The notes beneath the pieces are model-generated. The model had not been told where the DNA came from, searched no databases, and saw nothing but the letters and a program-made list of their open reading frames with translations. A DNA stretch of 64,000 nucleotides from Minisyncoccota bacterium (GTDB lineage Bacteria > Patescibacteriota > Minisyncoccia > Phycocordibacterales > XYD1-FULL-46-19): NCBI GenBank assembly GCA_041665625.1, contig JBAYIK010000001.1, forward strand, positions 2,091 through 66,090. Reading direction: 5' to 3'. Made by a program: the position numbers and the translations under genes. This document shows, one piece after another, positions 8,323-31,650 of the stretch (the stretch's first letter is position 1; every line of letters starts with the position of its first letter).

Positions 8323-8556
8323 TTTTAGATATTCTCAATCGATTTAGTTTTGCTACCTCTTTCATATTACGGAGATCTCCGTTTTAGGTTGGGAAGCCAC
8401 GGCCGGGCGTGAGCGGAAAAAATAAATTAAAGTGAATATTTTTTTGCCCTTGAAATTACCCAGAATCTATGTTTTAGTCTAAGAGGAACCTGCTATTTGT
8501 CAGCATGTTTCTGTTAATTAAGACTTCAATCAACACCCTTACAGGAGGCTCGATAA

Positions 8557-10347: not shown

Positions 10348-10367
10348 CAGAAACAAGCTCGTGTGAA

Positions 10368-10407
10368 CATGCCCGTCAGACTTCGGTTTGGCGGGCATTA
10401 GTGTTTT
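10368..10407 (+). terminator. Rho-independent terminator.
   Basis: Stem ATGCCCG...CGGGCAT followed by TAGTGTTTT. Confidence 0.5.
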
Positions 10408-10777
10408 AATTATAAGATCAAATTTAGTGTTACCAGTTTATCGTCTTTATCGTCCTATCGTCGAGAGCAGACGATACTGACGGTAGAGACGATGTTTCGG
10501 GAGGATTAAGTGTTTGGTGGCTTGTCTTCCTTCAGATCGGGGATGATTACTGTGCTTACAAAAGTGCCATAATACCATTGCCACTTTTTAATATATTTTT
10601 CTAAGGTGTTCCAAGTAAATTCTTTCTTGTGCACAGGAGCAAGCAAGCGGCTTTGCTTACTTAGTATATTTGTGTTAGAACTAGCTCGGAAGCTTAGATG
10701 TTATTTGTCATGGAAAGTAGGAAAAAACAACTCAGAACAAAGACCTCATTGAGGCAAAAAGAGGAGAGACCTGTCTT

Positions 10778-12043: not shown

Positions 12044-12071
12044 CTCGGAAGTTGTAAGAAAGGAAAAGGTT

Positions 12072-13271: not shown

Positions 13272-13309
13272 CCTTGAAATGAAGCGGTGAACCATCACCA
13301 TGACCGAAA

Positions 13310-13349
13310 CCCTGGAGCAGCGCTCCAGGGTTTTACTTTTTTATTTTTC
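13310..13349 (+). terminator. Strong rho-independent terminator closing the GC-rich operon.
   Basis: Perfect stem CCCTGGAGC-agc-GCTCCAGGG followed by TTTTACTTTTTTATTTTT. Confidence 0.8.
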
Positions 13350-13422
13350 AAAATATTTTAAAAGAGGGGTTGTCCACAGTTTTTCTTTCTCTTATTTTTT
13401 ATAAGGAATATAATAAGAAGCA

Positions 13423-15624: not shown

Positions 15625-15664
15625 ATTAAGTGTTCGATAAATTCAAAAAATAAAAAAATATATT

Positions 15665-16003
15665 ATGGATGATCAAGTTATAACTAAGGCCAAACATTTA
15701 GGCCAACTCTTAGCTAAGAGCCCTCTTGATATTGAACTTAAGATCACGATTTTAGAAAATTTGTCTAAGATGCCTGAGAAATATCTTGACGCTCTAATTG
15801 TTTCTCTTGAGAACGAGGCGAAGGGGATTGAGATTTTATTGAAGGAAGCTGATGTTTTTCTCAAGACTCAAGATGACGACTGGGCAAAAGTTGAGGCTGA
15901 CCAGACCGCTTTGGCTGACAAAATGACCGAAGAAATCATTGGTGAAGTTGTTAAAGAAGACCAAATAAACGCGGTTAAAGCCAATATTGTGAGTAGCCTC
16001 TAG
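15665..16003 (+). CDS. Small conserved hypothetical protein; paralog of 29469..29657.
   Basis: 'KAKHLGQLLAKSPLDIELKITILENLSKMPEKYLDALIVSLENEAKGIEILL' here versus 'KAQRLGQLLANSTTLDLDQKMRILGLLKGMTEGQIDSLIIYLDEGIGDLELIL' in the paralog. Confidence 0.6.
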   Translation: MDDQVITKAKHLGQLLAKSPLDIELKITILENLSKMPEKYLDALIVSLENEAKGIEILLKEADVFLKTQDDDWAKVEADQTALADKMTEEIIGEVVKEDQINAVKANIVSSL

Positions 16004-16035
16004 TTTTTTGACCATATTCCAATAAAGAACACCAC

Positions 16036-16065
16036 CTTGACAAATTGTCAAGTATGGTATATAAT
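16036..16065 (+). promoter_or_regulatory. Canonical sigma70 promoter (TTGACA-N17-TATAAT) whose -35 lies inside a perfect 17-bp palindrome CTTGACAAaTTGTCAAG.
   Basis: Palindrome at 16036-16052; -35 at 16037-16042; TGg-TATAAT at 16060-16065. Confidence 0.6.
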
Positions 16066-16151
16066 AGATGTAGATAGTACAAGCAGGCATTGTGGCCTGT
16101 TTTTGCTTAATATTTTTGTTGTTTTGACAGAGGAATAAAGGAAGGAAAGAA

Positions 16152-16433
16152 ATGAAGAAAAACGCTCTGATTACCGCCTTGGTGGTCTTGTTGCTCGTGG
16201 CTGGGATGATTATTCTCCAGCTCTGGCCCAAGACCTCTTCGGTGGAAAAGACGTCCGCCCCGGTGGTGACGAAAGTTGCCGCCCCTGCTCCCGAGCCGCC
16301 GGCACTTGTGCCTGCGTCTCTACCTGTCTCGACCCCGGCGCCTGTCGCGCCGATGTCGAAGGTTGACGAGAAGTTGTCAAAACTGCACTTCGGATTGTCT
16401 TCTGATGTGCAGCCGATAAATGTCGTAAAGTAA
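16152..16433 (+). CDS. Small TM / Pro-Ala-rich secreted protein, GC-rich.
   Basis: N-terminal TM 'ALITALVVLLLVAGMIIL' followed by a PAPEPPALVP-rich region. Confidence 0.5.
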   Translation: MKKNALITALVVLLLVAGMIILQLWPKTSSVEKTSAPVVTKVAAPAPEPPALVPASLPVSTPAPVAPMSKVDEKLSKLHFGLSSDVQPINVVK

Positions 16434-16435
16434 AC

Positions 16436-17509
16436 GTGAAGGAGAAGATCATGAAGAAGGCAACGTTGATTTGGGTTCTGGCGGCCATGATGTCCATCTC
16501 GGCCTGGGCTGGTGGGTATACCGACGCCGAGCGCGTCGCCGATGCGTTCGCTTCGGTGGATGTCAACCAGTATGAGGGGCAGTTCGGGTTTACCCGTTTG
16601 CTTCCCAACGGTACGTCCAGCGATGTCCGGGGAGACTTTTCCCTCGACGCCAACGGCAAGATACCTCGCCTCGTCATTGATGGGGTGTCGGTGGTCAACT
16701 GGGGCGACGAACCCCTTGGCGGCTTGCCCGTCAACAAACTCGGCAGTGCCACCAACTACTGGCTCAGGCTGGATGGTTGGGATGGCAAAGCCGGAAGGTT
16801 CGCCATCTACGGTTGGTTCAGTACCGTTCTGCTTGAGCCCAAAGACCGAATCACCGTTGAACTGAACCTTGCGTACGTCGAAGCGTTTGTGGCTTTCGAT
16901 GCCGCCGACTATGACTCTTCGCGTCTTGTGCTTCGCTACAGTAATGGAGAGTCCGGTTATGACACTTCGCGGGGAGGTTTCGTCCTATGGATTGACCCCG
17001 CCGCGAGCGATGTTTCGTATGACATTGTCGATACAGGCATTAGCCAAGTCGTTGCCAGTGGTACGCTCCAGTCGGGTGTTGCCGAGGACAATGTCATCAA
17101 CAAGTTTATGCCGGCCGGAGTGCGAGAATTGTTCCCGGTGGGCCAAGACTTTGTGTCCTTACATGACCAGTGGTTTGGCTCGTCCATTCTGCGGAACGAG
17201 GCGTGGGTCCCTGCTCAGATCTATATCGCTCGCGCCTACGGCAGTGCCCTGACCCTTGAACCGAGTGGTACGGCTGTTGGTCGAGTCGAAGTTTATGCAG
17301 TCGACGATGACCGCAACCGCACGCTCGTTTCCGAGTTGGACATCCCTGTCCCCGTCTCGGTTGGCAAGGGTGGTGGTGTCGAAACCCGTCCGATCCTCAA
17401 TGTTCCCGCCGGGTACGAGAACCTGGTCATTGAGTTGATCGGGGCCCCGGATAACTGGGGAAGCTTCGGCATCGTGGCCTACAAGGCCCAACAGGGTGGC
17501 CGCGGTTAA
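16436..17509 (+). CDS. Secreted hypothetical protein, GC-rich.
   Basis: Signal peptide MKKATLIWVLAAMMSISAWA. Translationally coupled to the previous gene. Confidence 0.55.
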   Translation: MKEKIMKKATLIWVLAAMMSISAWAGGYTDAERVADAFASVDVNQYEGQFGFTRLLPNGTSSDVRGDFSLDANGKIPRLVIDGVSVVNWGDEPLGGLPVNKLGSATNYWLRLDGWDGKAGRFAIYGWFSTVLLEPKDRITVELNLAYVEAFVAFDAADYDSSRLVLRYSNGESGYDTSRGGFVLWIDPAASDVSYDIVDTGISQVVASGTLQSGVAEDNVINKFMPAGVRELFPVGQDFVSLHDQWFGSSILRNEAWVPAQIYIARAYGSALTLEPSGTAVGRVEVYAVDDDRNRTLVSELDIPVPVSVGKGGGVETRPILNVPAGYENLVIELIGAPDNWGSFGIVAYKAQQGGRG

Positions 17510-17547
17510 TACCTGGCCCTTCCTTTCAACCTCTAACCTGTAACCCC

Positions 17548-17586
17548 CCGCCTGCTGAGCTTTGCTCGGCAGGCGGTTTCTTTTTG
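17548..17586 (+). terminator. Rho-independent terminator.
   Basis: Stem CCGCCTGC...GCAGGCGG followed by TTTCTTTTT. Confidence 0.7.
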
Positions 17587-17666
17587 GCTTTACTTAGAAA
17601 GTTTTTAATGTTAGTAATTAGCCAGGTTTGAACAAATATGGGTTTTAACAGAAGAGGAATTAGCTC

Positions 17667-18050
17667 ATGGGTAGGACAGTGGCGTTGCTTCGGACATCAG
17701 AAGGGATCGAAGAGCCGATTCGGATTGGCTTTAATGATCGAAAGTTGTCGGACTGTGATCGGCTAAAAATGGTTTTTGGACACCGGCTGGCTAGGGCTCT
17801 CTGGCTTTCTTTCGGCCGAGGGCAACGCGTTTTCGATCTTGAGAGTTGGTGCCTTAGACTGGCCGTTGAGATTGAAAAGTTGGGATATTTCCCTGAAGCC
17901 TCCGAATTGTACCAAATGGTTAAGATGAGGGCTGAGACCTTGCCTGGCCAAATAGTACTCGACTCTTTCGCGGAATCGAACGTTTTCTTTTCTCGCTTGG
18001 CTGAGGCCCTGCGAGACCCTTTGGCTCCGATCACTTACATTGAGGCTTAA
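17667..18050 (+). CDS. Hypothetical protein, GC-rich.
   Basis: 127-aa ORF followed by hairpin CCCACCG...CGGTGGG. Confidence 0.45.
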   Translation: MGRTVALLRTSEGIEEPIRIGFNDRKLSDCDRLKMVFGHRLARALWLSFGRGQRVFDLESWCLRLAVEIEKLGYFPEASELYQMVKMRAETLPGQIVLDSFAESNVFFSRLAEALRDPLAPITYIEA

Positions 18051-18139: not shown

Positions 18140-18298
18140 ATGTCACAAGATTTTTTAATCAGATTAAGCTGTAAGACCTGCAAGAGAATTAACTACTGGT
18201 CCAGCAAAAATAAGAAAAAAGTTGAGCGCAAGATTGAGCTCAAGAAATATTGTAAGTGGTGCAAAAAGAACACTACTCACATTGAGACCAAGAAATAA
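18140..18298 (+). CDS. rpmG: 50S ribosomal protein L33.
   Basis: 53-aa 'MSQDFLIRLSCKTCKRINYWSSKNKKKVERKIELKKYCKWCKKNTTHIETKK' with the L33 C4 zinc motif and KNK/LELKKYC signature. Too short for the ORF track. Confidence 0.85.
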   Translation: MSQDFLIRLSCKTCKRINYWSSKNKKKVERKIELKKYCKWCKKNTTHIETKK

Positions 18299-18359
18299 TC
18301 GTCTTGGTCTTTTTGTTTTCTTCTTGGTTTTTATCTTGAGTATGGTTTATACTTAAAGC

Positions 18360-19688
18360 GTGCTAAAGCTCAGAAAAATTTATTTTCTGTTTGTTATTTT
18401 TTTCTTCGCCAGCCCTCTTGTTGGTTTGGCGGAGAGTGCCAGTTCGGCCAGTTTTAATTTGCTCGAAGGGGTTATTTCTCCGGCGGGTTATTCGGCTTCT
18501 AGTAATTTCAAACTTAACGGCCTCATTTCACAATTTAGTATTGGACCGAGTCAGGCGGCCAATTTTCTTTTGAAGAGTGGCCTTCTTTATTTTCCGATTA
18601 TCAGCACCCCGGTTATTACTAGTTCGGCGGGGGATGGCCAGGTTGCTTTATCTTGGACAGGGGCGACAGGTCTCTTGGGTTGGAGCGTTGGCGAGTACGT
18701 TGTTGGTTGGTCAGGAATTTCAGGTGGCCCGTATACTTTAATTAGCGCGGGGACCAATCTTAGTTATACAAAGACGGGCCTAAGTAATGGCACTCCATAT
18801 TATTTTATAATTAAAGTTAAAGATGCTCTCGGTAACTATGTGGCAACTTCCACCCAAGTTTCAGTAACACCAGTTGCTCCTGTCGTTATCCCCCCTGGTG
18901 GCGGAGGAGGCGGGGGTGGCGGAGGAGGCGGGGGCGGAGCTACTGGTGGCGCCCGAGCAATTTTCCGCGGGCGGGCCTTCCCCTCAAGCGATGTCTCTCT
19001 TTTCCGTGATGGACAAAATGTCGCAACGACTAAAGCTGGGCCTGACGCTAACTTCGAAATTTCTTTAGGTAACTTATCGGCCGGCCTTTATAATTTTGGA
19101 GTCAATTCTACTGACAATTTGGGCCGTCAATCCTTAATTCAGACTTTCCCGGTAACTTTGTCCGGCAGTGCGGAGGTGGTAATTAGCGGTATTTTTATTG
19201 CCCCCTCAATTTCGGTTGATAAGCAAGAAGTTAAACAGGGTGATAATATTGCCATCTTTGGGCAGAGTGTTCCCAATGCCAAAGTGACAATTGCCATTAA
19301 TTCCGAGCAACAAATTTTTGCTCAAGCCGGGACTGACAAGTCGGGGGCTTATTTATATAATCTTGATACCGCCCCTTTAGAATTGGGTGGCCACACCGCG
19401 AAGTCTAAGGCGGCTCTGGCGACCGAGATAAGTCCTTTTGGCCCAACAGCAGGCTTTAAGGTTGGGACAGAAAATGTGCTAGCTGACCTTAAGGCCAAGA
19501 AATGTCCGGCTAAGGGGGATCTCAATACCGACTGTAAGGTCAACCTAATAGACTTTTCTATTGCTGCTTATTGGTACAAGCGCCCACTCTCGGCGACTTT
19601 CCTGGCTCTCGAGAAGACAAAATTGAATGGCGATGGCAAACTTAATTTAACTGATTTTAGTATTATGGCGTACTACTGGTCTTCTTAA
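18360..19688 (+). CDS. Secreted multi-domain protein: FN3/Ig-like domains, a Gly14 linker and a C-terminal dockerin-like domain.
   Basis: Signal peptide. Dockerin repeats 'GDLNTDCKVNLIDFSIAAYWY' and 'LNGDGKLNLTDFSIMAYYW'. GTG start. Confidence 0.6.
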   Translation: MLKLRKIYFLFVIFFFASPLVGLAESASSASFNLLEGVISPAGYSASSNFKLNGLISQFSIGPSQAANFLLKSGLLYFPIISTPVITSSAGDGQVALSWTGATGLLGWSVGEYVVGWSGISGGPYTLISAGTNLSYTKTGLSNGTPYYFIIKVKDALGNYVATSTQVSVTPVAPVVIPPGGGGGGGGGGGGGGATGGARAIFRGRAFPSSDVSLFRDGQNVATTKAGPDANFEISLGNLSAGLYNFGVNSTDNLGRQSLIQTFPVTLSGSAEVVISGIFIAPSISVDKQEVKQGDNIAIFGQSVPNAKVTIAINSEQQIFAQAGTDKSGAYLYNLDTAPLELGGHTAKSKAALATEISPFGPTAGFKVGTENVLADLKAKKCPAKGDLNTDCKVNLIDFSIAAYWYKRPLSATFLALEKTKLNGDGKLNLTDFSIMAYYWSS

Positions 19689-19698
19689 ACTTAAAAAT

Positions 19699-20613
19699 AT
19701 GATGTTAAAAAATTTTTCTAAAACTTCAATCACAACAATATTTTTCTTAACTATTTTTAGTTTTGTTTTTTTTGCTCAGCCCGCTTTAGCGGTAGATATT
19801 TTTCTTTTTTCGGCCCAACAAGAGCTTCCTGGCGATGAACTCGTTGTTTCCCTTGGTTTAGACACTGGGGCCGATAGAATTAACACTGTGTCTGGCGAAT
19901 TGTCTTATGATCAAAATATTTTAGACCTTATCTCAACTTCTAACGCGAACTCGGTAATTCCTCTCTGGGTGGAGGCACCGGCGAGTAAAACCCCTGGCCT
20001 CGTCTCTTTCTCCGGTATCGTTCCTGGTGGTTTTGGTGGACAAGGAAAGATCATCTCTCTTGTTTTCAAATCTAAAATAGGGGATAAGGACATTACCAAG
20101 CTTGTTAAAGTTAAAAAAATAGAAATCTTGCGCAATGATGGTGCTGGCACCGTCGTTGCGGTAAAAATTATTACACCAAGTGTTAGTCTCACTAATTCTT
20201 TAGATATCTCATCGGTTGGCGACACTAACGCTCCAGAGCCTTTTAAGCCCATATTGAGTAGAAATGACCCGCTTCTTGGCAATCAATCTTATCTTATTTT
20301 TAATACAACCGATAAAGGCTCAGGGATAGATAAATATTTTGTTATTGAGAGCCCCGTTAAATTAAATTTTAAAAGCGGTGCCAATTTAGAACAGAATTTT
20401 ATTTGGGCTCCAGCCGAGAGTCCTTATCTCCTGCAAGATCAGACACTCTCTAGTCATATTTATGTTAAAGCGGTTGATCGCGCAGGAAATGATTTAGTTG
20501 TTGAGTTGTCCCAAGAAAAAGAATTTTATCAGACTTGGTGGTTCTGGCTATTGATAATTATCTTGATACTTTTTGTTGTCATCTGTGGAAAACTTTATCG
20601 AAAGAAGTATTAA
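19699..20613 (+). CDS. Cohesin-like domain protein with a signal peptide and a C-terminal TM anchor.
   Basis: 'VSGELSYDQNILDLISTS...GLVSFSGIV...KIISLVFKSK' cohesin-like beta-sandwich pattern. C-terminal 'WWFWLLIIILILFVVICG'. Confidence 0.5.
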   Translation: MMLKNFSKTSITTIFFLTIFSFVFFAQPALAVDIFLFSAQQELPGDELVVSLGLDTGADRINTVSGELSYDQNILDLISTSNANSVIPLWVEAPASKTPGLVSFSGIVPGGFGGQGKIISLVFKSKIGDKDITKLVKVKKIEILRNDGAGTVVAVKIITPSVSLTNSLDISSVGDTNAPEPFKPILSRNDPLLGNQSYLIFNTTDKGSGIDKYFVIESPVKLNFKSGANLEQNFIWAPAESPYLLQDQTLSSHIYVKAVDRAGNDLVVELSQEKEFYQTWWFWLLIIILILFVVICGKLYRKKY

Positions 20614-20654
20614 TTATTTGTAACTAGTTGTATAATTAAGAGGTAAATATATCT

Positions 20655-22127
20655 GTGAAATATATTAAACTTTTTCTTTTAATTTTAGTCCTCTGCCCGA
20701 TAATTACTCTCGCCGCTGATCTTAGAGTTAGTGTGAGCAAGAGTGAGGTTGTTGTCGGTGAATTAATCTCGGCCCGTATTCTTGTGAGCACTCCAGATCA
20801 AGCCGCCAACGCGCTCTCGGGAGTCCTTAGCTTTAACCCTAGCAAGCTACAAGTCGTCTCGTTGTCTAAGGCTGGTTCGGTTGTTAACCTTTGGGTCACT
20901 GAACCGGATTTTTCTAATGCCAAGGGGCAGGTCTCTTTTGAAGGGGCTATTTTGAACCCCGGCTTTACAGGGAGTTCTGGTTCAGTCCTCACTATTAATT
21001 TCAAAGCGAAGGAAACTGGTGTCGCTACCCTATCCTTTGCTAATGGTTCAGTCTTGGCCAATGATGGCTCGGGTACCAGTATTCTCAACAAGCTCGGTCA
21101 AGCAACTCTCTCTATCAAAGCGCTTGCTCCAAAAATCGAACCAGTTATCCCCGAAGAAGCCGTAGAGCCTCCTGTTCCTGCTTCAGTCGCTAAGGTCTCT
21201 ACCACTGTGCCCGGTGCTCCGGTTATCTCTTCGCCGACTCACTTCGATCAGACTAAATGGTATAGCAATCGTTTTCCTAAATTATCTTGGACCTTGCCTG
21301 ATGATGTGACAGATGTTAGTTTTTTGCTTAATGATGAGAAGACAAGCAATCCTGGGACTAAGAGTGATGGTCTTTTTAATGATTATACGGCCGACAATGA
21401 AGTTCCGGATGGCCTTTGGTATTTCCATCTTCGTTTCAAGAATAGTAAAGGTTGGGGTCCTGTTTCGCACTTTACCCTTAATATCGATGGGACGCCCCCT
21501 AACCGTCTAGAGGTAGAAGAAAAAACTTTAGATGACCTAAATTATAAAACGAGTTTTATTTTTGACGGCTCTGATGAACTCTCAGGTCTTTCTCAATATG
21601 AATTTATTGTTGACAACTTAAAACCAGAAATTATTTTGGCTGATAAAGCCCACCTCTATGAGACGCCCGCTCTTTCGTCAGGCAATCACACCTTAACTAT
21701 TCGGGCCGTTGACCAAGCGGGGAATAGTTTAGAGAAAAAAGTTAATTTTGATATCATTTCCCCTCTCACTAAGGCTTCATTTTATCGTTGGGGGAGTAAC
21801 TTAGTTATTATTTTGTCAGTTTTGGTTCCGCTTCTGGCACTTTTATTTGCCTTGCTTTATGTTCTATTGATCGCTTGGCGCAAGGTGGCCAAACTTAAGC
21901 GCAGTCTGCGTCAGGAGGTGGATGAAGTTGAGGACCATATACACGAAGCCTTCGACTTTATTCGTGAAGATCTGCGAGAGCAGGTTAAACTTATTGAGAA
22001 GACAAAGGGCAAGCGCAAGCTCACCTTGTTGGAGAATAAAATTATGCGAAAATTGCGTAATAATTTGGACGAAACTGAAAAATATATCAAGAAAGATATT
22101 GAGGAAATTGCCGAGAAGGTAAAATAA
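20655..22127 (+). CDS. Cohesin-like domain membrane protein: signal peptide, cohesin-like domain, a beta-rich region, a TM helix, and a charged cytoplasmic coiled-coil tail.
   Basis: 'LSGVLSFNPSKLQVVSLSKAGSVVNLWVTEP...GQVSFEGAIL...SVLTINFKAKETGVATLSFANGSVL'. TM 'LVIILSVLVPLLALLFALLYVLLIAW'. GTG start. Confidence 0.55.
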   Translation: MKYIKLFLLILVLCPIITLAADLRVSVSKSEVVVGELISARILVSTPDQAANALSGVLSFNPSKLQVVSLSKAGSVVNLWVTEPDFSNAKGQVSFEGAILNPGFTGSSGSVLTINFKAKETGVATLSFANGSVLANDGSGTSILNKLGQATLSIKALAPKIEPVIPEEAVEPPVPASVAKVSTTVPGAPVISSPTHFDQTKWYSNRFPKLSWTLPDDVTDVSFLLNDEKTSNPGTKSDGLFNDYTADNEVPDGLWYFHLRFKNSKGWGPVSHFTLNIDGTPPNRLEVEEKTLDDLNYKTSFIFDGSDELSGLSQYEFIVDNLKPEIILADKAHLYETPALSSGNHTLTIRAVDQAGNSLEKKVNFDIISPLTKASFYRWGSNLVIILSVLVPLLALLFALLYVLLIAWRKVAKLKRSLRQEVDEVEDHIHEAFDFIREDLREQVKLIEKTKGKRKLTLLENKIMRKLRNNLDETEKYIKKDIEEIAEKVK

Positions 22128-22211
22128 AAGTTCTTACTTAGTTATCCCCTAAGAAACTCTCTTTTTGCTTAATAAATAACATTAATATTTGCTATAATAT
22201 AAGCAAACTTT

Positions 22212-25200
22212 ATGTTTTTTTGTTGGCAAAATTTCTTTAGGAATCGGCGCTTTTTGGCTATAGTTTTTTTGCTATTTTTTTCTTTGCAATTTTTTGTTTT
22301 TTCCTCGGCTTCGGCCGCCACTGGTGTCCCTCAAATTATGAGTTATCAGGGGCGCTTGGCAAATTCGGCGGGGGACTTGGTTGGAGGGACTGGAGCGATT
22401 TATTCTTTCAAATTTTCTCTTTGGGATAACGCTACTGTCGGCTCTGGTTCTAGGGTTTGGCCAGCTACTTCTCCGACCGCTTTTACTTCAACAGTTCGCC
22501 AAGGACTTTTTAATGTGAATATTGGGGATACTGACAATGGATATCCGGATGCTCTTAACTACGATTTCAGTCAGAACAACAAAATTTATTTACAGATTGA
22601 AGTTTCTTCTGATGGTATTACTTACGAGACTCTGGGCCCTCGCCAACCCATTACCAGTGCGCCTTTTGCCCAAGTGGCTGGCTCTGTCTACGGTTCAGGT
22701 ATTTCCACTATGGGTGGTCTTGTTGTAAATGGCAACAGCACTACTACCAGTTTAGCGATTGCTGGTTTAGCTAACACCTATCTGGCTGTTAATGGCCTTG
22801 GCCAAGTCATTGCCACAACTTCCCCCGCCTTCTCTTTTTCTGAACTCGATCCCTACTACTCCGTTGCTTCTTCTTCTCTTTTGCATTATGGCACGACCTC
22901 TGACGCTCTAACCGAAGGTCTCGTTAACAAATTCTACACTCAGGCCAAAGTTTGGACTGATATTGTCGCTTCTTCCACCTTTCAAACTTTTTCTAATTAT
23001 TGGACGAAGACGGGGGATGATCTGAGTTATCTCACAGGGGATGTTTCTGTTGGGACGAGCTCTTCGGCCTCCACTTTCAATATCCAGGCCTTGGCTGGTG
23101 CTTCGGCACTTAATATTGCGTCTTCAACAGGGGCGTCAATGTTCACCGTTGCGAGTAATGGCAATGTCGGAATTGGTACGGAAAACCCAACCAATGCCCT
23201 GGTTGTTAATGGGACAGCCAGTGCCTCTCTCTTCCTTGGCCAAGTTCGGGGGACTCTATGGTTAAGTTCTGCCGCGGATATTGGATTTAACCGATTGTCA
23301 GCTGGGGTGGCAACAGTTAATGGTACGGCGGGCTCAAGCGCTTTACGTCCTCTTATCGCCTCTAACTTTTTTACAGGGACAACGACAACCTCCAGCCAGG
23401 TTGGCATACTTAACATCGCTACTACGACGGGGGACTCTTATCTGTTTGTTGGGAATACTGGTCTTGTTGGCCTCGGCACTACTACACCCGACTCTAACCT
23501 TAATGTTTTTGGCACCACTAACACCTTCTTGCGTGTCGCTTCCTCCACCAACCAAAACATTTTTGTTATTGATGGCTCTGGCGACTTGTCAGCCACGGGC
23601 AACTTGGCGATGACGGGGGCGGTCACTGGTTCTAATCTTAATGTTACAAATTGGAATACGGCCTATGGTTGGGGTGATTGGGCAACTGGTGTCTGGGCCT
23701 CTTCCACTCTCTCCACTCTATTCGCCAATGCCTCCACCGCTTTCTCTTGGGGCGACCACTCTCTTCTTGGTTATCTCACCAATGCTTTGTTTGATACACG
23801 TCTCGCCGCCACCACTTCACTCCCAAATCTCGCGACACTCGCTGGCCTCACCGATATTGGTTCCGCTTCCGCCACCACAACAATTGGCGGGAGTTCTCGT
23901 TTTATTGTTGGGGCCAATGGCAATGTGGGGATTGGGACAAGTACACCAAGCGAGGTGCTTAGCGTTGTGGGGAATTCAATTTTTGGGACGAGAAACAATA
24001 TTACTAATTTTGCCTCGAGTTTTGGCATAACGAGTTACTCCGCGATTATTGGCTCTGCTGACACCGACAAGCCGGGGCTTGTTTTGGGAGATTTTGACGG
24101 AACGAAAAATCGAAGGTCTGCTATTTATCTCGACAATTCTTATCCCGCAACTGTTTTTAGGTCTACATATAGTACCGGCGGTTCTCCTAATTGGGTTTTC
24201 TATAATGGTTCTGTTGGCATTGGCACCACCACCCCACTAGCCAAACTTGATATTGCCGGTACACTTGGCTCGACAGCGGACTTATTTAATGTCTCCTCGA
24301 CCACGGAGGCTAATGTTGTTTCTAGTTTGTTCAAAATTGCTTCGGATGGCAAAGTAACAGTTGGCGCCACCCTTAATCTTAGTGCTCTTTCTGACTCATA
24401 TCTCTCCGTCAATAGCCTTGGTCAGGTGATTGCGACTTCCACCCCACTTCTTTCTTTTGACGAAACTGATCCCTACTACACAGCCGCCTCTTCTACCCTC
24501 TTACGCTATGGAAACAGTTCCGATGTCTTAACTGAAGGTGTGATCAATAAGTTTTATACTCAGGCCAAAGTTTGGGATGATATTGTCGCTTCCACAACTT
24601 TCCAAGCCTTTGCCAATTATTGGACGAAGGTGGGGAACGATTTGAATTATTTAACAGGGAATGTTGCCGTTGGTACCACAACATTTGATGGAACGAACCC
24701 AGAAAAGTTTTTGGTTGATGCTGGTAATACTAGTTCGGTCAACGGCTTAGTTGTTCGGGGTAGTATCGATAATTATTTCCAGATGAATATAAAGAATAGC
24801 TCGGGCGGCACGAATGCTTCTACTGATATTGTGGCCACGGGTGATACTGGTAACGAAGGTACTGGTTTTATCGATATGGGTATTAATAGTTCGGGCTACA
24901 CGGGGGGTATCGTGGGCCTCGCTAATGACACTTATCTTTATGGTTCTTCGACGGGGAATATGCTTATTGGCAATGCTTCAGCTGGCAAGAATTTAATTTT
25001 CTTCACGAACGGTGCTAATGGCTATACTAACGAGAAGATGAGAATTAGCTCAAGTGGTTTTGTCGGCATTGGTAATTGGAGCCCGACACAAGCACTTGAA
25101 GTCGGATCAACCACGGCCGGGTTGAATGGAATCTTCAACGCGACTCTTGGGGCCGAGCTTACTCCTACTTTTGACGCCGGCAATTGGACAGGGACAAATG

Positions 25201-28200
25201 GTTGGTCAGCGACGGGTTCGACTTTAGAAAAAGTTACTAATGCGACAGCTGGTACCATTACTCCTTCAGGAGCAGGGGCCACCCCTGCCATTGGGACGAC
25301 TTATCAGATTACCATCACAACTTCAGCGAAGGGGGCCGCCGCTGTTACCTACACTTATGGTGGTGTTACCGGTACGACTATTGTCGTCGGAACTTTTACT
25401 GATTATATTACCGCTGTTACCGCGGGTAAGCTTATTATTACTGGGGCGATTTCCTCTACGGCCACCATTACTGGTGTTAGTATTAAAGCCTTGACCAATA
25501 ACACTGGTGATCTCACTGTTTTTGGTGATATTAAGCTTGGGAGTCGAATAACTAATCCTAACGGGACTCTTGGCTTGGAAATTTCGCCAACAGGGGCGGC
25601 TGTATTCGGGAGCACTGTGAACGCTGCTGGCCGTATAACAGGGGCTGGCCTCGCCGCCGGAGGCACCGTCACTGGTGTCACCTCATTGGCTCATAGTTTA
25701 GCTATTACGGGTACTGTCCCAACTCTATACGTCTCGACGGATGGTTATATCTTAACAGCGGCCGCTTCAACAGGTGTCACAAGCACACTTGTTCCACTTA
25801 GTATCTCTCCTCGTATTAGGCAAGTTGGTCAAGCTTGGGATATTGATAGTGCGGCGAATGTTCTCAATAATTATTGGTCCGAGGTTATCGCTTATCCTGG
25901 GACAACAACTGTTAATTCTAAACTCTCCTGGTTTTATAGCCAAGGAGCGATGGCCGCTGCGGCTGAATATCAAGCACCCGAGATTATGAACTATTATAAT
26001 GGCAGCCTTAATGTGCTTGGTTCAACTTATGGCGATGAGGTCTTAACTAATGGCGCTCTTGCAACCCCTGGTGCTGAGTGGTCTGTCTCGGCGACAGGGT
26101 TTACTCTTAATGGTAGTGCCGCTGTTTATGTCCACCATGCTTCGGGTGGCACTCTTACACAACCAAGCACTTCTTTTGATCCGCCAGTAAAAGCCAACAG
26201 GTGGTACAGATTTACTTGGACGTCATCAGCTCTTAATACAACGGCTCGTGCCTATATTGATCCAACAGGTATTTCGGCCGAAAGAGTATATTTACGCGGA
26301 ACAGTGGTAACAGCTGGTACTTATACGGTAACTTTCAAAACCAATTCCAACCCGGGCAACTTTATTATCACGGCTGATTCAAACTCTTCAGGTGATGGAT
26401 TCACTCTTGATGATTTGTCACTGGTCGAAGTTAATTCTGGGAATGTTGTGGCGAATGGTTTGTTTACTGGTGGAGGAACCGAAGGACTTAAGATTGATAA
26501 TAACGGTCTAGTCGGCATCGGCACGAGTACTCCTGATTCTGAATTAAATATTTTTGGCAACAATACGACTTTCCTGCGCGTTGCTTCCTCTACTAACCAA
26601 AACATTTTTGTCATCGACTCTAGTGGTAACGTTAGCTTGTCAGGTAATCTAACCCTCGGCAATCTCAACGGCCCCCTCCAAGCCATCAATGGCCTTGTCT
26701 CAGCGACCTCTTCGATTGGCTCTGGTTATCTCTCTGGTAACGTGATGCTAGAAGGTGAAAATATCTCTTTGTTAAATAACGATGCTAATTATCTTGCTTA
26801 CGGCACGTCATCTGACGCTCTTACCGAAGGCCTCGTCAATGAATTTTATACTCAGGCTAAAGTTTGGACAGATATTATTGCTTCTTCCACTTTCCAAACT
26901 TTTGCTAATTATTGGACAAAGACGGGGGATGATTTGGGGTATCTTGTTGGTAATGTGGGAATTGGAACTACCACCAATATGAGCAACAAGCTAACTATCG
27001 ACGGAGGAGATGGTTCTATCAGTGGATTAGAAATTCGTAATTTGGGGACAGCGACGAAGGGGATAGATCTCTCTAATTCTGGCCTCTCTGGGGCAACTGA
27101 CTACCCTATTTATATAGGAGCCTCTCAATATTGGACGGCCTCAAATGTTCTCAGGGCTTCGGTTGGATCTTTTTCAAGTGATCATTCAGCCTTAGACTAT
27201 CGTCCTTTTGGGACAAACTCGGATCTTGTCTATTGGCTTAAAAATGATGCAAATAAATTCTCTTTTGAAAATACGGCTGGCTTAGAAGTCGCGAGCATCT
27301 CCTCGGCTGGTGTTGCTTCGACGACTGGGCTGCAAGTTAATGGGAATAGTTTTTTGACTGGGACTTTGTCTATTGGGACAACTTCTGTCGACTCAACTTT
27401 TAGTTTGCAAGCTCTTGCTGGAGTCTCAGCTCTTAATATTGCTTCGTCTACTGGCGCCTCAATGCTCTATGTTTCCAATAGTGGCTATGTGGGAATTGGC
27501 AACAACGATCCTTCATATCCTCTTACTGTGACGGGGGACATTGTCGCTTTGGGAACTAATAATATAACCCTGAGTACTGTTAGCGGTTCCATTTATGCGG
27601 CTGGGGGATTGGTAAATAATGTTACAGCTAATAATTCTCGGGTGAGATCTCCTACTACTGGGGCCATAATTGATAGGAACGTTGCTGACTCTAATCCGGC
27701 CTTGACCGTCAACCAGGCCTGGAATGGTGCAGCAAGTACGGGGGATCTTCTAAGATTGCAATACGACAGCGTGAATAAGATTGTTGTCGACTATTCGGGG
27801 AATATGGGTATTGGGACAACTACTCCAACTTCTAAACTTGTGGTCTCTGGTGCTTCGACTTCTCCTCTCGCTTACTTTGCCGATGATAACAATAATAGCT
27901 TACAAATTACCAGCCAAACTTTGGGCCTAGCCCTTGAAGGACACACTACCGCTTTGGGGCCAGACATCTCGTTCGTCGGAGTTAAGGACTCTTTCGCAAT
28001 AATTAACAGCCCTTCTGCTAGTGTTTACGAAGCCCTAGGAGCTACTAATACCATCGGGATGTCCTTTTCTAATTCGGCTCTTAATGTCTCAGCTGACATT
28101 ACTTTTGAAGATGTTTTGGGACAACTTAAATTGCGTTCTGATTATATTGAACTTGATAGTGCTAATGGTGTCACCGTAACGGATCTTAATGTTAACGGCG

Positions 28201-29111
28201 CGGTCTATTCTAATAACGGGGTACTCACCAATGTTAATCCCTCATCTCGCACTTACAAGAATAATATCGTTGATACTAATCTCAATATTGATGCTTTATT
28301 AGGATTACAGATTAAATCTTTTAATTGGAATAAGTCTGGGCAAGCCGATTTTGGCCTCATCGCTGAAGAAGTTAAATCTGCTGTCCCTGAGCTTTATCTT
28401 GAGAGCAATGGGGTTAAGGGTTACCGGGCAGATCATTTACCTTTCTATTTATTGCAGATTGCCCAGAGGCAAGAAGCGGATCTTAATGAATTAAGGAGTA
28501 AGCTTGATTCTTTAACGGGCTCTAGTGTGCCGATTAGCTTAACTGAAGAAGGTCTTATTGATCCAGCGTTGTTTACTGTTTCTACTTCAAGCTTAAATAT
28601 TTCTACGACAACGGAAGAGCTTTCTACTTCTACTGCTTTCTCAATTCTCTCAGATCGTTTGCTTTCTGGATTGACGACAGTTAAGGATCTTGTCTCTGAA
28701 CGAATGGTCGCGATGGTTGGCCTCTTCGATTATGTTAAATCCAAACTCGTTGAGACTGATGTCCTCCGTGTTCAGAAGGGGATGGAGATTAAAGATTCTG
28801 CTACTGGCGAGATTTACTGCGTGCTAATTGTTAATGGTGAGTGGAAGAAGACAAAGGGCCAGTGTTCTGATACTTCTGCTATTCCCCCTCTTGTTCAACC
28901 CGATACTCCTGTTGCACCTCCTTTGATAATAGTAGAGACAGGGAGCAGTACCCCAAGCGTAGATACCAGCACTTCTACTTCCCTAGAGCTTATCTCTCCA
29001 CCTGAACCTGTCACCACTGTTGAACCCAATCTCGAACCTGCCCCTGTTCCTGAACCTAGCCCCGATCCTGCTGAGACCTTGAACGAGACGATACTTGCCC
29101 CTGAAGTTTAA
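22212..29111 (+). CDS. Giant (2299 aa) secreted fibre-like surface protein with tail-fibre-type G(I/V)GTxxP repeats, three internal ~75-aa repeats, and a C-terminal intramolecular-chaperone (peptidase S74 / endosialidase-chaperone-like) autoprocessing domain.
   Basis: Signal peptide ...FSSASA. Repeats 'NVGIGTENPTNALVVNG', 'LVGLGTTTPDSNLNVFG', 'NMGIGTTTPTSKLVVSG'. C-terminal 'NPSSRTYKNNIVDTNLNIDALLGLQIKSFNWNKSGQADFGLIAEEVKSAVPELY' matches the S74 'SDxRLKxNI...GfIAQEVeevxPElV' consensus. Pro-rich tail. Confidence 0.7.
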   Translation: MFFCWQNFFRNRRFLAIVFLLFFSLQFFVFSSASAATGVPQIMSYQGRLANSAGDLVGGTGAIYSFKFSLWDNATVGSGSRVWPATSPTAFTSTVRQGLFNVNIGDTDNGYPDALNYDFSQNNKIYLQIEVSSDGITYETLGPRQPITSAPFAQVAGSVYGSGISTMGGLVVNGNSTTTSLAIAGLANTYLAVNGLGQVIATTSPAFSFSELDPYYSVASSSLLHYGTTSDALTEGLVNKFYTQAKVWTDIVASSTFQTFSNYWTKTGDDLSYLTGDVSVGTSSSASTFNIQALAGASALNIASSTGASMFTVASNGNVGIGTENPTNALVVNGTASASLFLGQVRGTLWLSSAADIGFNRLSAGVATVNGTAGSSALRPLIASNFFTGTTTTSSQVGILNIATTTGDSYLFVGNTGLVGLGTTTPDSNLNVFGTTNTFLRVASSTNQNIFVIDGSGDLSATGNLAMTGAVTGSNLNVTNWNTAYGWGDWATGVWASSTLSTLFANASTAFSWGDHSLLGYLTNALFDTRLAATTSLPNLATLAGLTDIGSASATTTIGGSSRFIVGANGNVGIGTSTPSEVLSVVGNSIFGTRNNITNFASSFGITSYSAIIGSADTDKPGLVLGDFDGTKNRRSAIYLDNSYPATVFRSTYSTGGSPNWVFYNGSVGIGTTTPLAKLDIAGTLGSTADLFNVSSTTEANVVSSLFKIASDGKVTVGATLNLSALSDSYLSVNSLGQVIATSTPLLSFDETDPYYTAASSTLLRYGNSSDVLTEGVINKFYTQAKVWDDIVASTTFQAFANYWTKVGNDLNYLTGNVAVGTTTFDGTNPEKFLVDAGNTSSVNGLVVRGSIDNYFQMNIKNSSGGTNASTDIVATGDTGNEGTGFIDMGINSSGYTGGIVGLANDTYLYGSSTGNMLIGNASAGKNLIFFTNGANGYTNEKMRISSSGFVGIGNWSPTQALEVGSTTAGLNGIFNATLGAELTPTFDAGNWTGTNGWSATGSTLEKVTNATAGTITPSGAGATPAIGTTYQITITTSAKGAAAVTYTYGGVTGTTIVVGTFTDYITAVTAGKLIITGAISSTATITGVSIKALTNNTGDLTVFGDIKLGSRITNPNGTLGLEISPTGAAVFGSTVNAAGRITGAGLAAGGTVTGVTSLAHSLAITGTVPTLYVSTDGYILTAAASTGVTSTLVPLSISPRIRQVGQAWDIDSAANVLNNYWSEVIAYPGTTTVNSKLSWFYSQGAMAAAAEYQAPEIMNYYNGSLNVLGSTYGDEVLTNGALATPGAEWSVSATGFTLNGSAAVYVHHASGGTLTQPSTSFDPPVKANRWYRFTWTSSALNTTARAYIDPTGISAERVYLRGTVVTAGTYTVTFKTNSNPGNFIITADSNSSGDGFTLDDLSLVEVNSGNVVANGLFTGGGTEGLKIDNNGLVGIGTSTPDSELNIFGNNTTFLRVASSTNQNIFVIDSSGNVSLSGNLTLGNLNGPLQAINGLVSATSSIGSGYLSGNVMLEGENISLLNNDANYLAYGTSSDALTEGLVNEFYTQAKVWTDIIASSTFQTFANYWTKTGDDLGYLVGNVGIGTTTNMSNKLTIDGGDGSISGLEIRNLGTATKGIDLSNSGLSGATDYPIYIGASQYWTASNVLRASVGSFSSDHSALDYRPFGTNSDLVYWLKNDANKFSFENTAGLEVASISSAGVASTTGLQVNGNSFLTGTLSIGTTSVDSTFSLQALAGVSALNIASSTGASMLYVSNSGYVGIGNNDPSYPLTVTGDIVALGTNNITLSTVSGSIYAAGGLVNNVTANNSRVRSPTTGAIIDRNVADSNPALTVNQAWNGAASTGDLLRLQYDSVNKIVVDYSGNMGIGTTTPTSKLVVSGASTSPLAYFADDNNNSLQITSQTLGLALEGHTTALGPDISFVGVKDSFAIINSPSASVYEALGATNTIGMSFSNSALNVSADITFEDVLGQLKLRSDYIELDSANGVTVTDLNVNGAVYSNNGVLTNVNPSSRTYKNNIVDTNLNIDALLGLQIKSFNWNKSGQADFGLIAEEVKSAVPELYLESNGVKGYRADHLPFYLLQIAQRQEADLNELRSKLDSLTGSSVPISLTEEGLIDPALFTVSTSSLNISTTTEELSTSTAFSILSDRLLSGLTTVKDLVSERMVAMVGLFDYVKSKLVETDVLRVQKGMEIKDSATGEIYCVLIVNGEWKKTKGQCSDTSAIPPLVQPDTPVAPPLIIVETGSSTPSVDTSTSTSLELISPPEPVTTVEPNLEPAPVPEPSPDPAETLNETILAPEV

Positions 29112-29126
29112 AACATAAAAAACAAA

Positions 29127-29161
29127 CCACCGCTAGGTATTACCTAGCGGTGATTTGTTTT
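29127..29161 (+). terminator. Rho-independent terminator, possibly bidirectional with the tRNA-Trp gene.
   Basis: Stem CACCGCTAGGTA-tt-TACCTAGCGGTG followed by ATTTGTTTT. Confidence 0.8.
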
Positions 29162-29234
29162 GGCGGGCCCACGAGGACTCGAACCTCGATCGATGGTTTT
29201 GGAGACCATTGTTCTACCATTGAACTATAGGCCC
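29161..29234 (-). tRNA. tRNA-Trp (anticodon CCA), with encoded CCA end.
   Basis: Reverse complement GGGCCTATAGTTCAATGGTAGAACAATGGTCTCCAAAACCATCGATCGAGGTTCGAGTCCTCGTGGGCCCGCCA folds as a cloverleaf with anticodon loop CTCCAAA. Confidence 0.85.
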
Positions 29235-30585: not shown

Positions 30586-30667
30586 GCCGAAGTGGCGGAA
30601 TTGGTAGACGCGCACGACTCAAAATCGTGTATCGCAAGATGTGAGAGTTCGATTCTCTCCTTCGGCA
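30586..30667 (+). tRNA. tRNA-Leu (anticodon CAA) with a long variable arm.
   Basis: GCCGAAGTGGCGGAATTGGTAGACGCGCACGACTCAAAATCGTG...GAGAGTTCGATTCTCTCCTTCGGCA. Anticodon loop CTCAAAA. Confidence 0.85.
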
Positions 30668-30672
30668 CCTAT

Positions 30673-31650
30673 ATGTCAAATAACTACGAAGATAAAATTT
30701 TCTTAATTGAAGTTGAGAAGATCAAGCCGAATCCTTATCAACCAAGGCGTGAATTTAACGAGGAACGTTTGCGGGATTTGGCTGACTCGATTAAGCAATA
30801 TGGGGTTCTCCAGCCTCTCGTTGTCACCAGGAAGGAGGTTGGCCGTGACGATGGTAGTTTCTTTACTGAATATGAAATTATCGCTGGCGAGCGACGTTGG
30901 CGTGCTTCGAAGCTGGCGGGCTTACCTCAAGTCCCGGCTATCATCCGCACGGGGGAGCAGAGTGATAAGGAGAAACTAGAACTCGCGATTATTGAGAATC
31001 TCCAACGTGAGGATCTTAATTCGGTTGATCGAGCTCAAGCCTTTTTCCGTTTGGTGAGCGACTTCGGCCTTTCTCATGGCGAAGTCGGCAAACGTGTCGG
31101 CCGTAGTCGTGAATATGTCTCTAACACTATCCGCATTCTTAATTTGCCTCAAGAAATTCTTGACGCTTTAGTGGCGGGCCAGATTGCCGAGGGTCACACC
31201 AAGCCGCTCTTGATGCTCTCTGATCATCCCGAGGAGCAAATCACGATCTTTAAGGAGGTAATGATTAAGCGCTTAACCGTGCGTGACACGGAGGCTATCG
31301 CTCGGCGCATTGCTTATGACCGGGTGCGCAAGAAGGAACATTTTGTTATGCCAGAGATTATTGAGCTAGAGGATAAATTGTCTGAGAAGTATGGCAATCG
31401 TGTTAAGGTTGAGGCCAAAGGCGAGACGGGCGGGCGCATCTTAATTGATTTTACTTCACCCGAAGAATTGCGACGCATTCTCTCGATGCTTGAACACAAT
31501 GGTCCTGCCAGTGTTATTGATATTCCTCTCTCTGGTCTGGCTCCCGAAGAAGTTGGTCAAGAAATCAATATTGCTGAGACTAAGCCAGGACAAGCAGCTG
31601 AACTTGAAGAGCCTGAAGATCTCTACTTCATTAAGAATTTTTCTCTTTAG
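30673..31650 (+). CDS. parB: Chromosome partitioning protein ParB/Spo0J.
   Basis: 'PNPYQPRREFNEERLRDLADSIKQYGVLQPLVV', 'IIAGERRWRASKLAGL' and an HTH. The listed ORF start at 30592 overlaps tRNA-Leu, so the start is taken at MSNNYEDK. Confidence 0.9.
   Translation: MSNNYEDKIFLIEVEKIKPNPYQPRREFNEERLRDLADSIKQYGVLQPLVVTRKEVGRDDGSFFTEYEIIAGERRWRASKLAGLPQVPAIIRTGEQSDKEKLELAIIENLQREDLNSVDRAQAFFRLVSDFGLSHGEVGKRVGRSREYVSNTIRILNLPQEILDALVAGQIAEGHTKPLLMLSDHPEEQITIFKEVMIKRLTVRDTEAIARRIAYDRVRKKEHFVMPEIIELEDKLSEKYGNRVKVEAKGETGGRILIDFTSPEELRRILSMLEHNGPASVIDIPLSGLAPEEVGQEINIAETKPGQAAELEEPEDLYFIKNFSL

Follow-up and report, generated by a model that had tools for sequence, protein, structure and literature searches.

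A dockerin-cohesin-cohesin membrane module beside a giant S74 fibre gene in a Patescibacteria genome: a candidate anchor for cell-surface filaments

How might a giant secreted fibre be held at the surface of the cell that makes it? This question is raised by a locus of four genes in a 64,000-nucleotide stretch of a Minisyncoccota bacterium genome (GenBank assembly GCA_041665625.1, contig JBAYIK010000001.1, positions 2,091 to 66,090), referred to here as the window. Four open reading frames (ORFs), g1 to g4, consecutive and co-oriented on the plus strand, span positions 18360-29111 of the window; they encode a secreted protein with a C-terminal dockerin module, two membrane proteins with cohesin-like domains and a giant fibre protein with a Peptidase_S74 chaperone domain. 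These ORFs lie at exactly the coordinates given in a preliminary description of this DNA, and all of the peptides quoted there are present. The attribution of the DNA to the Candidate Phyla Radiation (CPR; Patescibacteria) is also right, since NCBI labels the organism Candidatus Paceibacterota. The CPR may account for a large share of bacterial diversity and most of its members are thought to live attached to other cells. To our knowledge, the mode of attachment is known for only a few cultivated Saccharibacteria. We propose that the locus encodes a cell-surface fibre together with a membrane anchoring module, in which a cohesin socket and a dockerin adaptor would hold a trimeric, self-cleaving, adhesive fibre, and we put the probability of this reading at about 60%.

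Domains of the four proteins

All four proteins begin with an N-terminal hydrophobic segment that is consistent with a signal peptide (hydrophobicity). The third gene, g3 (20655..22127, plus strand), encodes a type-I membrane protein of 490 aa, assigned from Pfam, a PDB sequence match, an AlphaFold 2 (AF2) model and Foldseek. Its cohesin domain (aa 21-155) is followed by a disordered linker, two Ig/FN3-like domains (aa 190-367), a transmembrane segment (from aa 379) and a cytoplasmic helical tail. Pfam Cohesin (PF00963) matches aa 25-140 with 29.8 bits (gathering cut-off, 24.1), and the sequence matches a solved cohesin (4uyp_A, E=0.007). The AF2 model (21 homologues) has a mean pLDDT of 83.5, rising to ~90 in aa 21-155. 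Its best Foldseek match in the PDB is 2w1n, the cohesin-FN3 double module of C. perfringens GH84C (E=1.9e-13), and comparison with the single cohesins 2vo8, 2jh2, 6kgf_C, 4dh2_C, 1g1k and 5nrm_A gives TM(target) values of 0.71-0.77 and an rmsd of 2.5-3.8 Å. The modelled cohesin domain thus superposes on solved cohesins, for which the criterion was a nine-stranded jelly-roll beta-sandwich. In the same model a continuous helix (aa 370-453) runs from the transmembrane segment into the cytoplasm and a second helix follows (aa 458-489), in agreement with the cytoplasmic coiled-coil tail of the preliminary description. Different Patescibacteria classes share this tail (~90 aa; 21789-22124, i.e. aa 379-490, with the transmembrane segment included), a conservation that speaks for a separate role. 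The tail matched no family in any library searched, and its consensus reads KEVxEAExxLHxAFDxLKEDxxxQ...KRxLTxEE...AEKFVxKEIxDIEKE.

The second gene, g2 (19699..20613, plus strand), encodes a type-I membrane protein of 304 aa, as judged by paralogy to g3, a family profile and hydrophobicity. It consists of a signal-like segment, a cohesin-like beta-sandwich (aa ~32-165), an Ig-like domain, a transmembrane helix (aa 276-298) and a basic tail of 6 residues. The protein has no Pfam match. BLASTP aligns its cohesin domain with that of g3 (E=5e-12, 30% identity over 155 aa) and also its second ectodomain (E=5e-4), and the PDB matches of the g2 family profile are all cohesins, at weak scores (5aoz_A, E=0.004). 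Transmembrane helices are predicted in both of the proteins that had been described as membrane cohesins, and the cohesin domain itself is recovered by Pfam and AF2 in g3 and suggested by paralogy and a weak profile in g2.

The first gene, g1 (18360..19688, plus strand; ORF call and domain searches), encodes the putative adaptor, a secreted protein of 442 aa. A hydrophobic signal-like segment, an N-terminal segment of ~55 aa, an FN3-like domain (aa 80-171) and a poly-Gly linker make up its N-terminal side; Ig-like domains of the Big_6/Big_13 type (aa 201-266) and Big_7-like type (aa 288-346) lead to the C-terminal dockerin. No membrane anchor was found in g1 by a hydrophobicity scan. The family contains at least 1282 proteins that are ~50% identical over their full length, some of which are named 'dockerin type I repeat-containing protein' by NCBI. 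The dockerin module (aa 385-442; 19512..19685, plus strand) is formed by two tandem F-hand repeats of ~22 residues, DLNTDCKVNLID and KLNGDGKLNLTD, and the peptides GDLNTDCKVNLIDFSI / NGDGKLNLTDFSIMAY are confirmed at this C-terminus. With Asp or Asn at loop positions 1, 3, 5, 9 and 12 as the criterion, the first repeat (D-L-N-T-D-C-K-V-N-L-I-D) is complete. A profile of 28 orthologous g1 C-termini matches dockerins of known structure (2y3n_B, E=5.6e-10; 4fl4, 1.9e-7; 1daq, 2e-6; also 2mte and 5nrm), and no PDB match with E<0.05 falls outside dockerin modules and proteins that contain one. The claim that g1 is secreted and ends in a dockerin is hence upheld, with the identity of the dockerin supported at the level of the family.

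The giant fibre gene, g4 (22212..29111, plus strand), encodes 2299 aa according to the ORF call; the NCBI model starts 14 codons later and carries the name 'tail fiber domain-containing protein [Candidatus Paceibacterota bacterium]'. Hydrophobicity reveals no transmembrane helix besides the signal segment. The stalk (aa 161-2010; 22692..28241, plus strand) is rich in Thr, Ser, Gly and Asn and repetitive, with a module of ~110 aa occurring three times (aa 181-288, 721-828 and 1480-1591), and a VGIGTxxPxxxL-type motif (pattern [VI]G[IVL]G[TN]xxP) is found seven times in the protein. A Peptidase_S74 intramolecular chaperone, identified by Pfam and by a family profile, occupies aa 2011-~2125 (28242..28586, plus strand). 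The Pfam match to Peptidase_S74 (PF13884; aa 2011-2061) reaches 28.1 bits against a cut-off of 22, and the peptide NPSSRTYKNNI...GLIAEEVKSAVPELY is confirmed. As a single sequence the g4 C-terminus finds nothing among PDB sequences and the family profile is required: with this profile the matches are 8jov (5.6e-17), 6f45, MyRF 7dc3, T5 8hqz and phi29 3gud, with E values ranging to 2.5e-6, and profile positions 13-115 align to 8jov, 6f45, 7dc3 and 8hqz, that is, over the whole chaperone of ~110 aa including its C-terminal helix. The residues of the Ser2011/Lys2016 dyad (ORF numbering) are among the only invariant positions in an alignment of 19 homologues. Of the motif anticipated in the preliminary description, Ser-x4-Lys-x-N-I is intact (S2011-S-R-T-Y-K2016-N-N-I), and g4 departs from that consensus in two respects, having Ser where Asp is usual and its Arg displaced by one residue. 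Ser in place of Asp at +1 also occurs in two other aligned S74 homologues (SSRRFK and SSQRYK). Cleavage of g4 by its own chaperone is predicted to occur before Ser2011, with Lys2016 as the base. Past the S74 domain lies a C-terminal extension of ~170 aa (aa 2126-2299; 28587..29108, plus strand, delimited from the sequence), which holds the only Cys pair outside the signal segment (C2203 and C2218, in GEIYCVLIVNGEWKKTKGQC) and a Pro-rich tail; relatives of g4 have either the same C-terminal Cys motif or an LCxxxxCV variant. This extension would leave together with the chaperone fragment upon cleavage. The cohesin, dockerin and S74 assignments had all been made subject to fold tests set beforehand, and all three survive.

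At the other end of g4, a beta-rich domain (aa ~37-160; 22320..22691, plus strand; NCBIfam, homologues and AF2) is presumed to be the cell-proximal, anchoring part of the fibre. In isolation it scores 28.4 bits against NCBIfam NF053851 (Bdello_MAT_N), and 22 of 23 related N-domains match the same model (best E=2.7e-10), all under its curated cut-off of 60 bits. We regard g4 as a remote homologue of the MAT family, on profile evidence, and not as a member of the Bdellovibrio subfamily. The domain is common to at least 36 of 78 giant homologues, where it lies at aa ~30-165 with 45-65% identity; the bodies of these proteins differ and their ends are formed by S74, LVIVD or DUF5011 domains or by none that is recognisable. 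An exhaustive profile search with the g4 N-domain returned 16077 cluster representatives, 1888 of them at E<=1e-10, and among the 150 matches listed the domain is N-terminal in nearly all, in proteins of up to 5047 aa. The AF2 model of this domain has a pLDDT of ~90, and a Foldseek search of the PDB with it gave generic beta-sandwich matches only (E>0.02) and no fold relative. LVIVD repeats are present in several MAT_N-bearing giants, so fibre bodies are varied.

Cohesin and dockerin are the hallmark modules of cellulosomes, which raises the question of whether g1 to g4 could form a polysaccharide-degrading complex of that kind. This is very improbable. No glycoside hydrolase or carbohydrate-binding-module match was obtained in g1-g4 or their neighbours, each membrane protein has a single cohesin with no multi-cohesin scaffoldin present, and the sole dockerin-bearing protein is made of Ig/FN3 domains. 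The preliminary description had also set the locus apart from cellulosomes, and rightly.

The dockerin-cohesin-cohesin triad and its filament partners

We surveyed related genomes by a pattern scan, with one genome per species, from which 80 loci were returned via g3; ORFs were called in these loci and searched with iterative hidden Markov models (HMMs) built from the domains of the window. Relatives of g3 are encoded in the genomes of at least 532 Patescibacteria species, and the 80 loci span the Vogel-, Zambryski-, Portnoy-, Niyogi-, Magasanik-, Yanofsky-, Wildermuth-, Wolfe-, Falkow- and Komeilibacteria. A dockerin gene is found within four genes upstream of 58 of the 59 g3-like genes in this set that have at least 3 kb of upstream sequence, and nearly always the dockerin gene comes first, followed by a short cohesin gene of the g2 type and then by a long one of the g3 type, whose product has the tail. 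When a cohesin and a dockerin stay together in one operon, the simplest interpretation is that the two bind each other. We regard the triad as a cassette that is ancient and widespread in the CPR.

In some genomes two dockerin/cohesin cassettes lie no more than 10 kb apart (L063:1-21716, L084:17367-27359; L numbers denote the loci), and an extra cohesin paralogue lies within the cassette in L002, L004 and L005. Several loci (L008, L010, L011, L019 and others) have Patescibacteria gene content, yet their records are titled 'uncultured Gammaproteobacteria', 'Candidatus Saccharibacteria' or similar; the titles of these binchicken co-assembly records of metagenome-assembled genomes look unreliable as taxonomy. 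A known dockerin protein, the essential SEML1_0315 of Southlakia (Wang et al. 2023), was considered as a relative of g1 but not retained, because its gene (927 aa) stands alone with no cohesin genes around it, so that its context is not that of an orthologue.

The commonest partner of the triad is, by gene content, a Pam-type pilus operon and not an S74 fibre. Immediately 5' of the dockerin gene, at least 21 of the 80 loci have a gene for a two-domain protein of ~340 aa with a C-terminal transmembrane helix, resembling a PapD-like membrane chaperone, and in 12-14 loci this chaperone gene is preceded by genes whose C-terminal domains match CPR_Pam_pilin_C (NF058581, E~1e-42 to 1e-47). Loci in which Pam pilins and the PapD-like chaperone stand directly upstream of the triad are of Paceibacteria type (L017:2230-7601, L022:650-7995 and ~12 more, including L006, L014, L018, L027, L031, L038, L043, L047, L050, L073 and L077). 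The Pam pilus was described by Troman et al. (bioRxiv 2026, doi 10.64898/2026.03.03.709456), who studied Ca. Mycosynbacter filaments by cryo-EM. This preprint describes donor-strand-exchange pilins and membrane-anchored PapD-like chaperones, names the RbmA-like PamR as anchor, and notes a co-localised 'tail fibre-like protein'; cohesin and dockerin are not mentioned in it. An iterative HMM search of the 64-kb window found no Pam pilin (NF058581 / NF058579) and no such chaperone.

These findings bear on a reading in which the triad belongs to a Pam-type donor-strand-exchange machine. The sandwich domains of g2 and g3 would then be assembly or termination factors like PamC/D/R rather than receptors for a dockerin, the pilins would have been lost or moved, and the fibre would be unrelated. 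The order pilin-pilin-chaperone-dockerin-cohesin-cohesin in related loci fits such a machine, as do the membrane-anchored two-domain factors and the tail fibre-like neighbour proposed in the preprint. However, the fold search with g3 is topped by cohesins and not by PapD/FimC or RbmA, the pilus loci already have a separate PapD-like membrane chaperone, the co-occurrence of dockerin and cohesin is near perfect, and the window lacks a Pam pilin or chaperone. On the first two of these grounds we rejected g2 and g3 as candidates for PamC/D (PapD-like) or PamR (RbmA-like) proteins, and we consider the machine as a whole improbable for this locus.

The second partner of the triad is the MAT_N-type giant. 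In all 12 contexts examined (the window, L002, L003, L005, L049, L060, L069, L084, L085, L086, L087 and the P0021 contig) such a giant lies within 10 kb of a dockerin/cohesin cassette, with the fibre gene downstream of, upstream of or divergent from the cassette. The check for synteny in related CPR genomes that the preliminary description had called for is thus positive for both the triad and the pairing of fibre family and cassette, and the conserved neighbourhood strengthens its idea of a surface attachment apparatus. The giant encoded upstream of the triad at L019:1179-7064 is of the LVIVD-repeat type, with a beta-propeller (PF08309, E=1.7e-92). The partner is also correlated with the form of the dockerin protein. 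Within the unbiased set of g3-found loci, the g1 subtype with an extra N-terminal segment plus FN3 domain, which is the type in the window, has giant or MAT_N neighbours in 7/16 cases as against 2/31 (p=0.004), and the pilus chaperone gene in 1/16 as against 21/31 (p=5e-5). These associations fit a role for g1 as an adaptor, in which the variable N-terminal half would select the filament and the constant dockerin would plug into the membrane cohesins. An adaptor is a more likely role for g1 than cargo because the dockerin is on g1 and not on the fibre.

Several observations weigh against the coupling of fibre and triad that we propose, or against the assignments on which it depends. For g1 itself, Dockerin_1 (PF00404) scores 19.2 bits (E=1.5e-3), under the Pfam gathering cut-off of 22.9, and the second repeat (K-L-N-G-D-G-K-L-N-L-T-D) opens its Ca-loop with Lys; the g1 orthologues in L017 and L022 exceed the cut-off (28.9 and 23.8 bits), and most orthologues have Asp at this position. 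The MAT_N match of g4 is far under its cut-off (28 vs 60 bits) and points to remote homology at most. Some of the 12 contexts were found through the fibre and several come from one clade, so not all are independent. A giant or MAT_N protein lies nearby in only a minority of the 80 g3-found loci, the majority having pilins in its place, and the fibre is hence a non-obligatory partner of the triad. A promoter-like site in the g3-g4 spacer (22169..22198, plus strand; TTAATA-18-TATAAT with TG upstream) may allow separate transcription of g4; it comes from a consensus scan only, with 10/12 matches, and is weak evidence. Finally, what retains g4 could instead be the cell wall, or a signal anchor that escapes cleavage.

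In an alternative reading, the genes are neighbours without physical coupling: g1 would be a short Ig/FN3 adhesin docked on the cohesins, g4 would be independent and anchored otherwise, and surface genes would merely cluster. That most triads have no S74 or MAT_N fibre nearby, that a promoter-like site precedes g4 and that the dockerin is carried by g1 and not by g4 all accord with this alternative. It is less easily reconciled with the proximity of MAT_N giants to cassettes in 12/12 contexts with varying gene order, with the correlation between g1 subtype and giants, or with the absence from g4 of a recognisable anchor of its own, and we consider it unlikely.

Under the anchored-fibre reading, the four proteins would act as follows; the analysis itself establishes the domain identities, the topology signals, the conservation of the catalytic dyad and of the triad, and the proximity of the triad to MAT_N-type giants or Pam pilins, and the contacts between the proteins, trimerisation, cleavage and the target of adhesion are what we infer. 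The g2 and g3 proteins would be exported by the Sec pathway as type-I membrane proteins and show their cohesin 'sockets' outside the membrane, while the cytoplasmic coiled-coil tail of g3 may oligomerise or make connections inside the cell. Secreted without an anchor of its own, g1 would be held at the surface by insertion of its C-terminal dockerin into the cohesin of g2 or g3. The g4 protein would be secreted and fold as a long trimeric fibre under its C-terminal S74 chaperone, which would then cut itself off at Ser2011 and expose the distal tip. The MAT-like N-domain would lie at the cell-proximal end and be held by the g1/g2/g3 complex, most likely through contact with the extra N-terminal part of g1, and the distal part of the fibre might bind another cell or a surface.

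A broader possibility, which we put forward only tentatively, is that the triad is a general membrane anchor of Patescibacteria filaments, with one adaptor subtype serving Pam-type pili and the subtype with the extra N-terminal module capturing MAT-like N-domains. If this were so, the cohesin membrane proteins would be the kind of 'surface element' sought for MAT-type N-domains, and through the conserved cytoplasmic tail of g3 the inside of the cell would be coupled to filament occupancy. The spread of the triad with its Pam partner, the MAT-like N-domain of g4 and the likelier role of g1 as adaptor than as cargo had all been overlooked in the preliminary description.

Genomic setting and transcription signals

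The layout of g1-g4 is operon-like, with spacers of 10, 41 and 84 nt between the ORFs. Upstream, a terminator-like hairpin 3' of rpmG (18284..18311, plus strand; a 10-pair stem then a T-run, from a consensus scan) marks the start of a transcription unit separate from rpmG (L33; 18140-18298, plus strand, from the called genes of the source contig, a metagenomic contig of 293 kb from ENA ERZ27249449 in which the exact sequence lies). Downstream, a strong, bidirectional terminator-like hairpin with a 20-pair stem (29119..29161, unstranded) lies between the g4 stop codon and a convergent tRNA-Trp gene (29161-29234, minus strand). A scan between these two flanking hairpins found none of comparable strength inside the g1-g4 stretch. 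The wider neighbours are chromosomal housekeeping genes (rpmG, miaA, parB, relA/spoT, topA, dprA, serS and a clpB-like gene), and the position of the locus between rpmG and miaA/parB is kept in an 81%-identical relative (L002).

This setting speaks to a further explanation, that the locus is a prophage or tailocin remnant in which g4 would be the tail fibre of a phage, flanked by genes for phage accessory proteins. S74 domains are typical of phage fibres, and one real phage contig (L089) has an S74 fibre with partial N-terminal similarity to g4. Nevertheless, no phage structural, packaging or integration genes occur within +/-10 kb, none of the four proteins has a significant match in PHROGs (NCBIfam and PHROGs also gave nothing useful for g1-g3), the chromosomal position is shared with the 81%-identical relative, each of the four proteins has a Sec-type signal segment, and 2.9 million viral contigs yielded no more than 2 weak relatives of the g4 N-domain. 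A viral origin of the locus as such is, on this evidence, hardly credible. The L089 contig (L089:1-16123; IMGVR_UViG_3300010355_001866) is a genuine phage fragment with a lambda-type portal, a gpA terminase and an S49 protease; the first ~45 residues of its 931-aa S74 fibre resemble the MAT_N-like domain, and TIR/SEFIR and AbiU2 HEPN proteins are encoded nearby. It hints at an exchange of fibre modules between phages and CPR cells.

Elsewhere in the window, positions 8000-18000 have a G+C content of 0.51-0.53, higher than the 0.40-0.46 found in the remainder. ORFs in this block lie at 13423-15624 (733 aa, Pro/Glu-rich, with a hydrophobic C-terminal part), 15665-16003, 16152-16433, 16436-17509 (with a lipoprotein-like start) and 17667-18050. 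These ORFs upstream of g1 (13423-18050) had no match in any library searched. Four of the five recur in the 81%-identical relative (as proteins of 700, 112, 102 and 351 aa), and the fifth, the 127-aa ORF at 17667-18050, has no called counterpart there. The protein encoded at 6497-7201 has two Lipoprotein_Ltp repeats (PF07553, E=3.9e-22), a domain known from phage-encoded superinfection-exclusion lipoproteins. A tRNA-Leu(CAA) gene (30586-30669) overlaps the first 26 codons of the called parB ORF (30592-31650, GTG start), and the true start of parB must therefore be further downstream.

Comparison with known systems

Each part of this locus is of a known kind and its domains are already named in public annotation. 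In the literature searched, we found no description of a conserved dockerin-cohesin-cohesin membrane cassette, of its alternation between Pam pili and MAT-like giants, or of the size of the MAT_N-like family in the CPR. The triad is probably how such CPR cells fasten surface fibres and pili. The locus points to a reusable, sortase-free principle of anchoring, a membrane cohesin socket plus a dockerin adaptor, in a module that is conserved in hundreds of species and paired either with Pam pili or with giant, predicted self-cleaving fibres reminiscent of those with which Bdellovibrio recognises its prey. Candidate protein pairs are also provided by the locus: the dockerin of g1 may bind the cohesins of g2 and g3, and g1 may bind the N-domain of g4.

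Known cohesin-dockerin pairs, cellulosomal or not (2w1n; the scaffoldins of Acetivibrio and Clostridium), resemble the triad in having the cohesin fold, a two-repeat F-hand dockerin and partners that are encoded together. They differ from it in that the triad cohesins are on single-pass membrane proteins, with a cytoplasmic tail in g3, and the triad dockerin is on an Ig/FN3 protein and not on an enzyme, with no glycoside hydrolases. The dockerin helices of the triad also have a distinctive DFSI(A/M)A(Y/F)YW motif, and the second Ca-loop of the window protein starts with Lys. The triad would thereby extend non-cellulosomal cohesin-dockerin biology to the membrane anchoring of filaments. The Pam operon and the window locus are alike as CPR-specific surface-filament clusters, both of them apparently Sec-assembled and with membrane-anchored accessory proteins. 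However, Pam has been placed mainly in the Saccharimonadia and Microgenomatia (doi 10.64898/2026.03.03.709456), whereas the loci combining triad and pilins come from Paceibacteria-type genomes. With phage fibres and spikes (the K1F endosialidase, the T5 L-shaped fibre pb1 and phi29 gp12), and with eukaryotic MyRF, g4 shares the S74 Ser/Lys dyad. Unlike the phage proteins, it is chromosomal, non-viral and, as its signal segment indicates, Sec-secreted, and its N-terminus is not of the kind that attaches a fibre to a phage baseplate or tail.

The MAT fibres of Bdellovibrio have been shown experimentally to be surface trimers by Caulton et al. 2024 (PMC10769870). These authors found a mosaic of stalks and tips, with an active S74 domain in 13 of 21 fibres, and a conserved N-domain that binds a predator surface element of unidentified nature. 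MAT fibres and g4 have in common a signal peptide, a beta-rich N-domain of ~130 aa, a long repetitive fibre, a C-terminal S74 domain with Ser-x4-Lys and loops of the V-G-x-x...P-x-x-x-L type; in both families the fibres are mosaics, some of which end in S74 and others not, and neither N-domain has a fold relative in the PDB (PMC10769870 for MAT). There are also differences: g4 is 2-3 times longer, has the motif SSRTYK rather than SDxxxK and adds the ~170-aa Cys/Pro-rich extension after the chaperone, the CPR host cell is monoderm-like, and g4 adjoins a cohesin/dockerin cassette, a neighbourhood unreported for Bdellovibrio. The hosts may nevertheless be likened as bacteria living on other bacteria, and the triad offers a candidate answer to the question posed by MAT fibres, that of the partner of their conserved N-domain.

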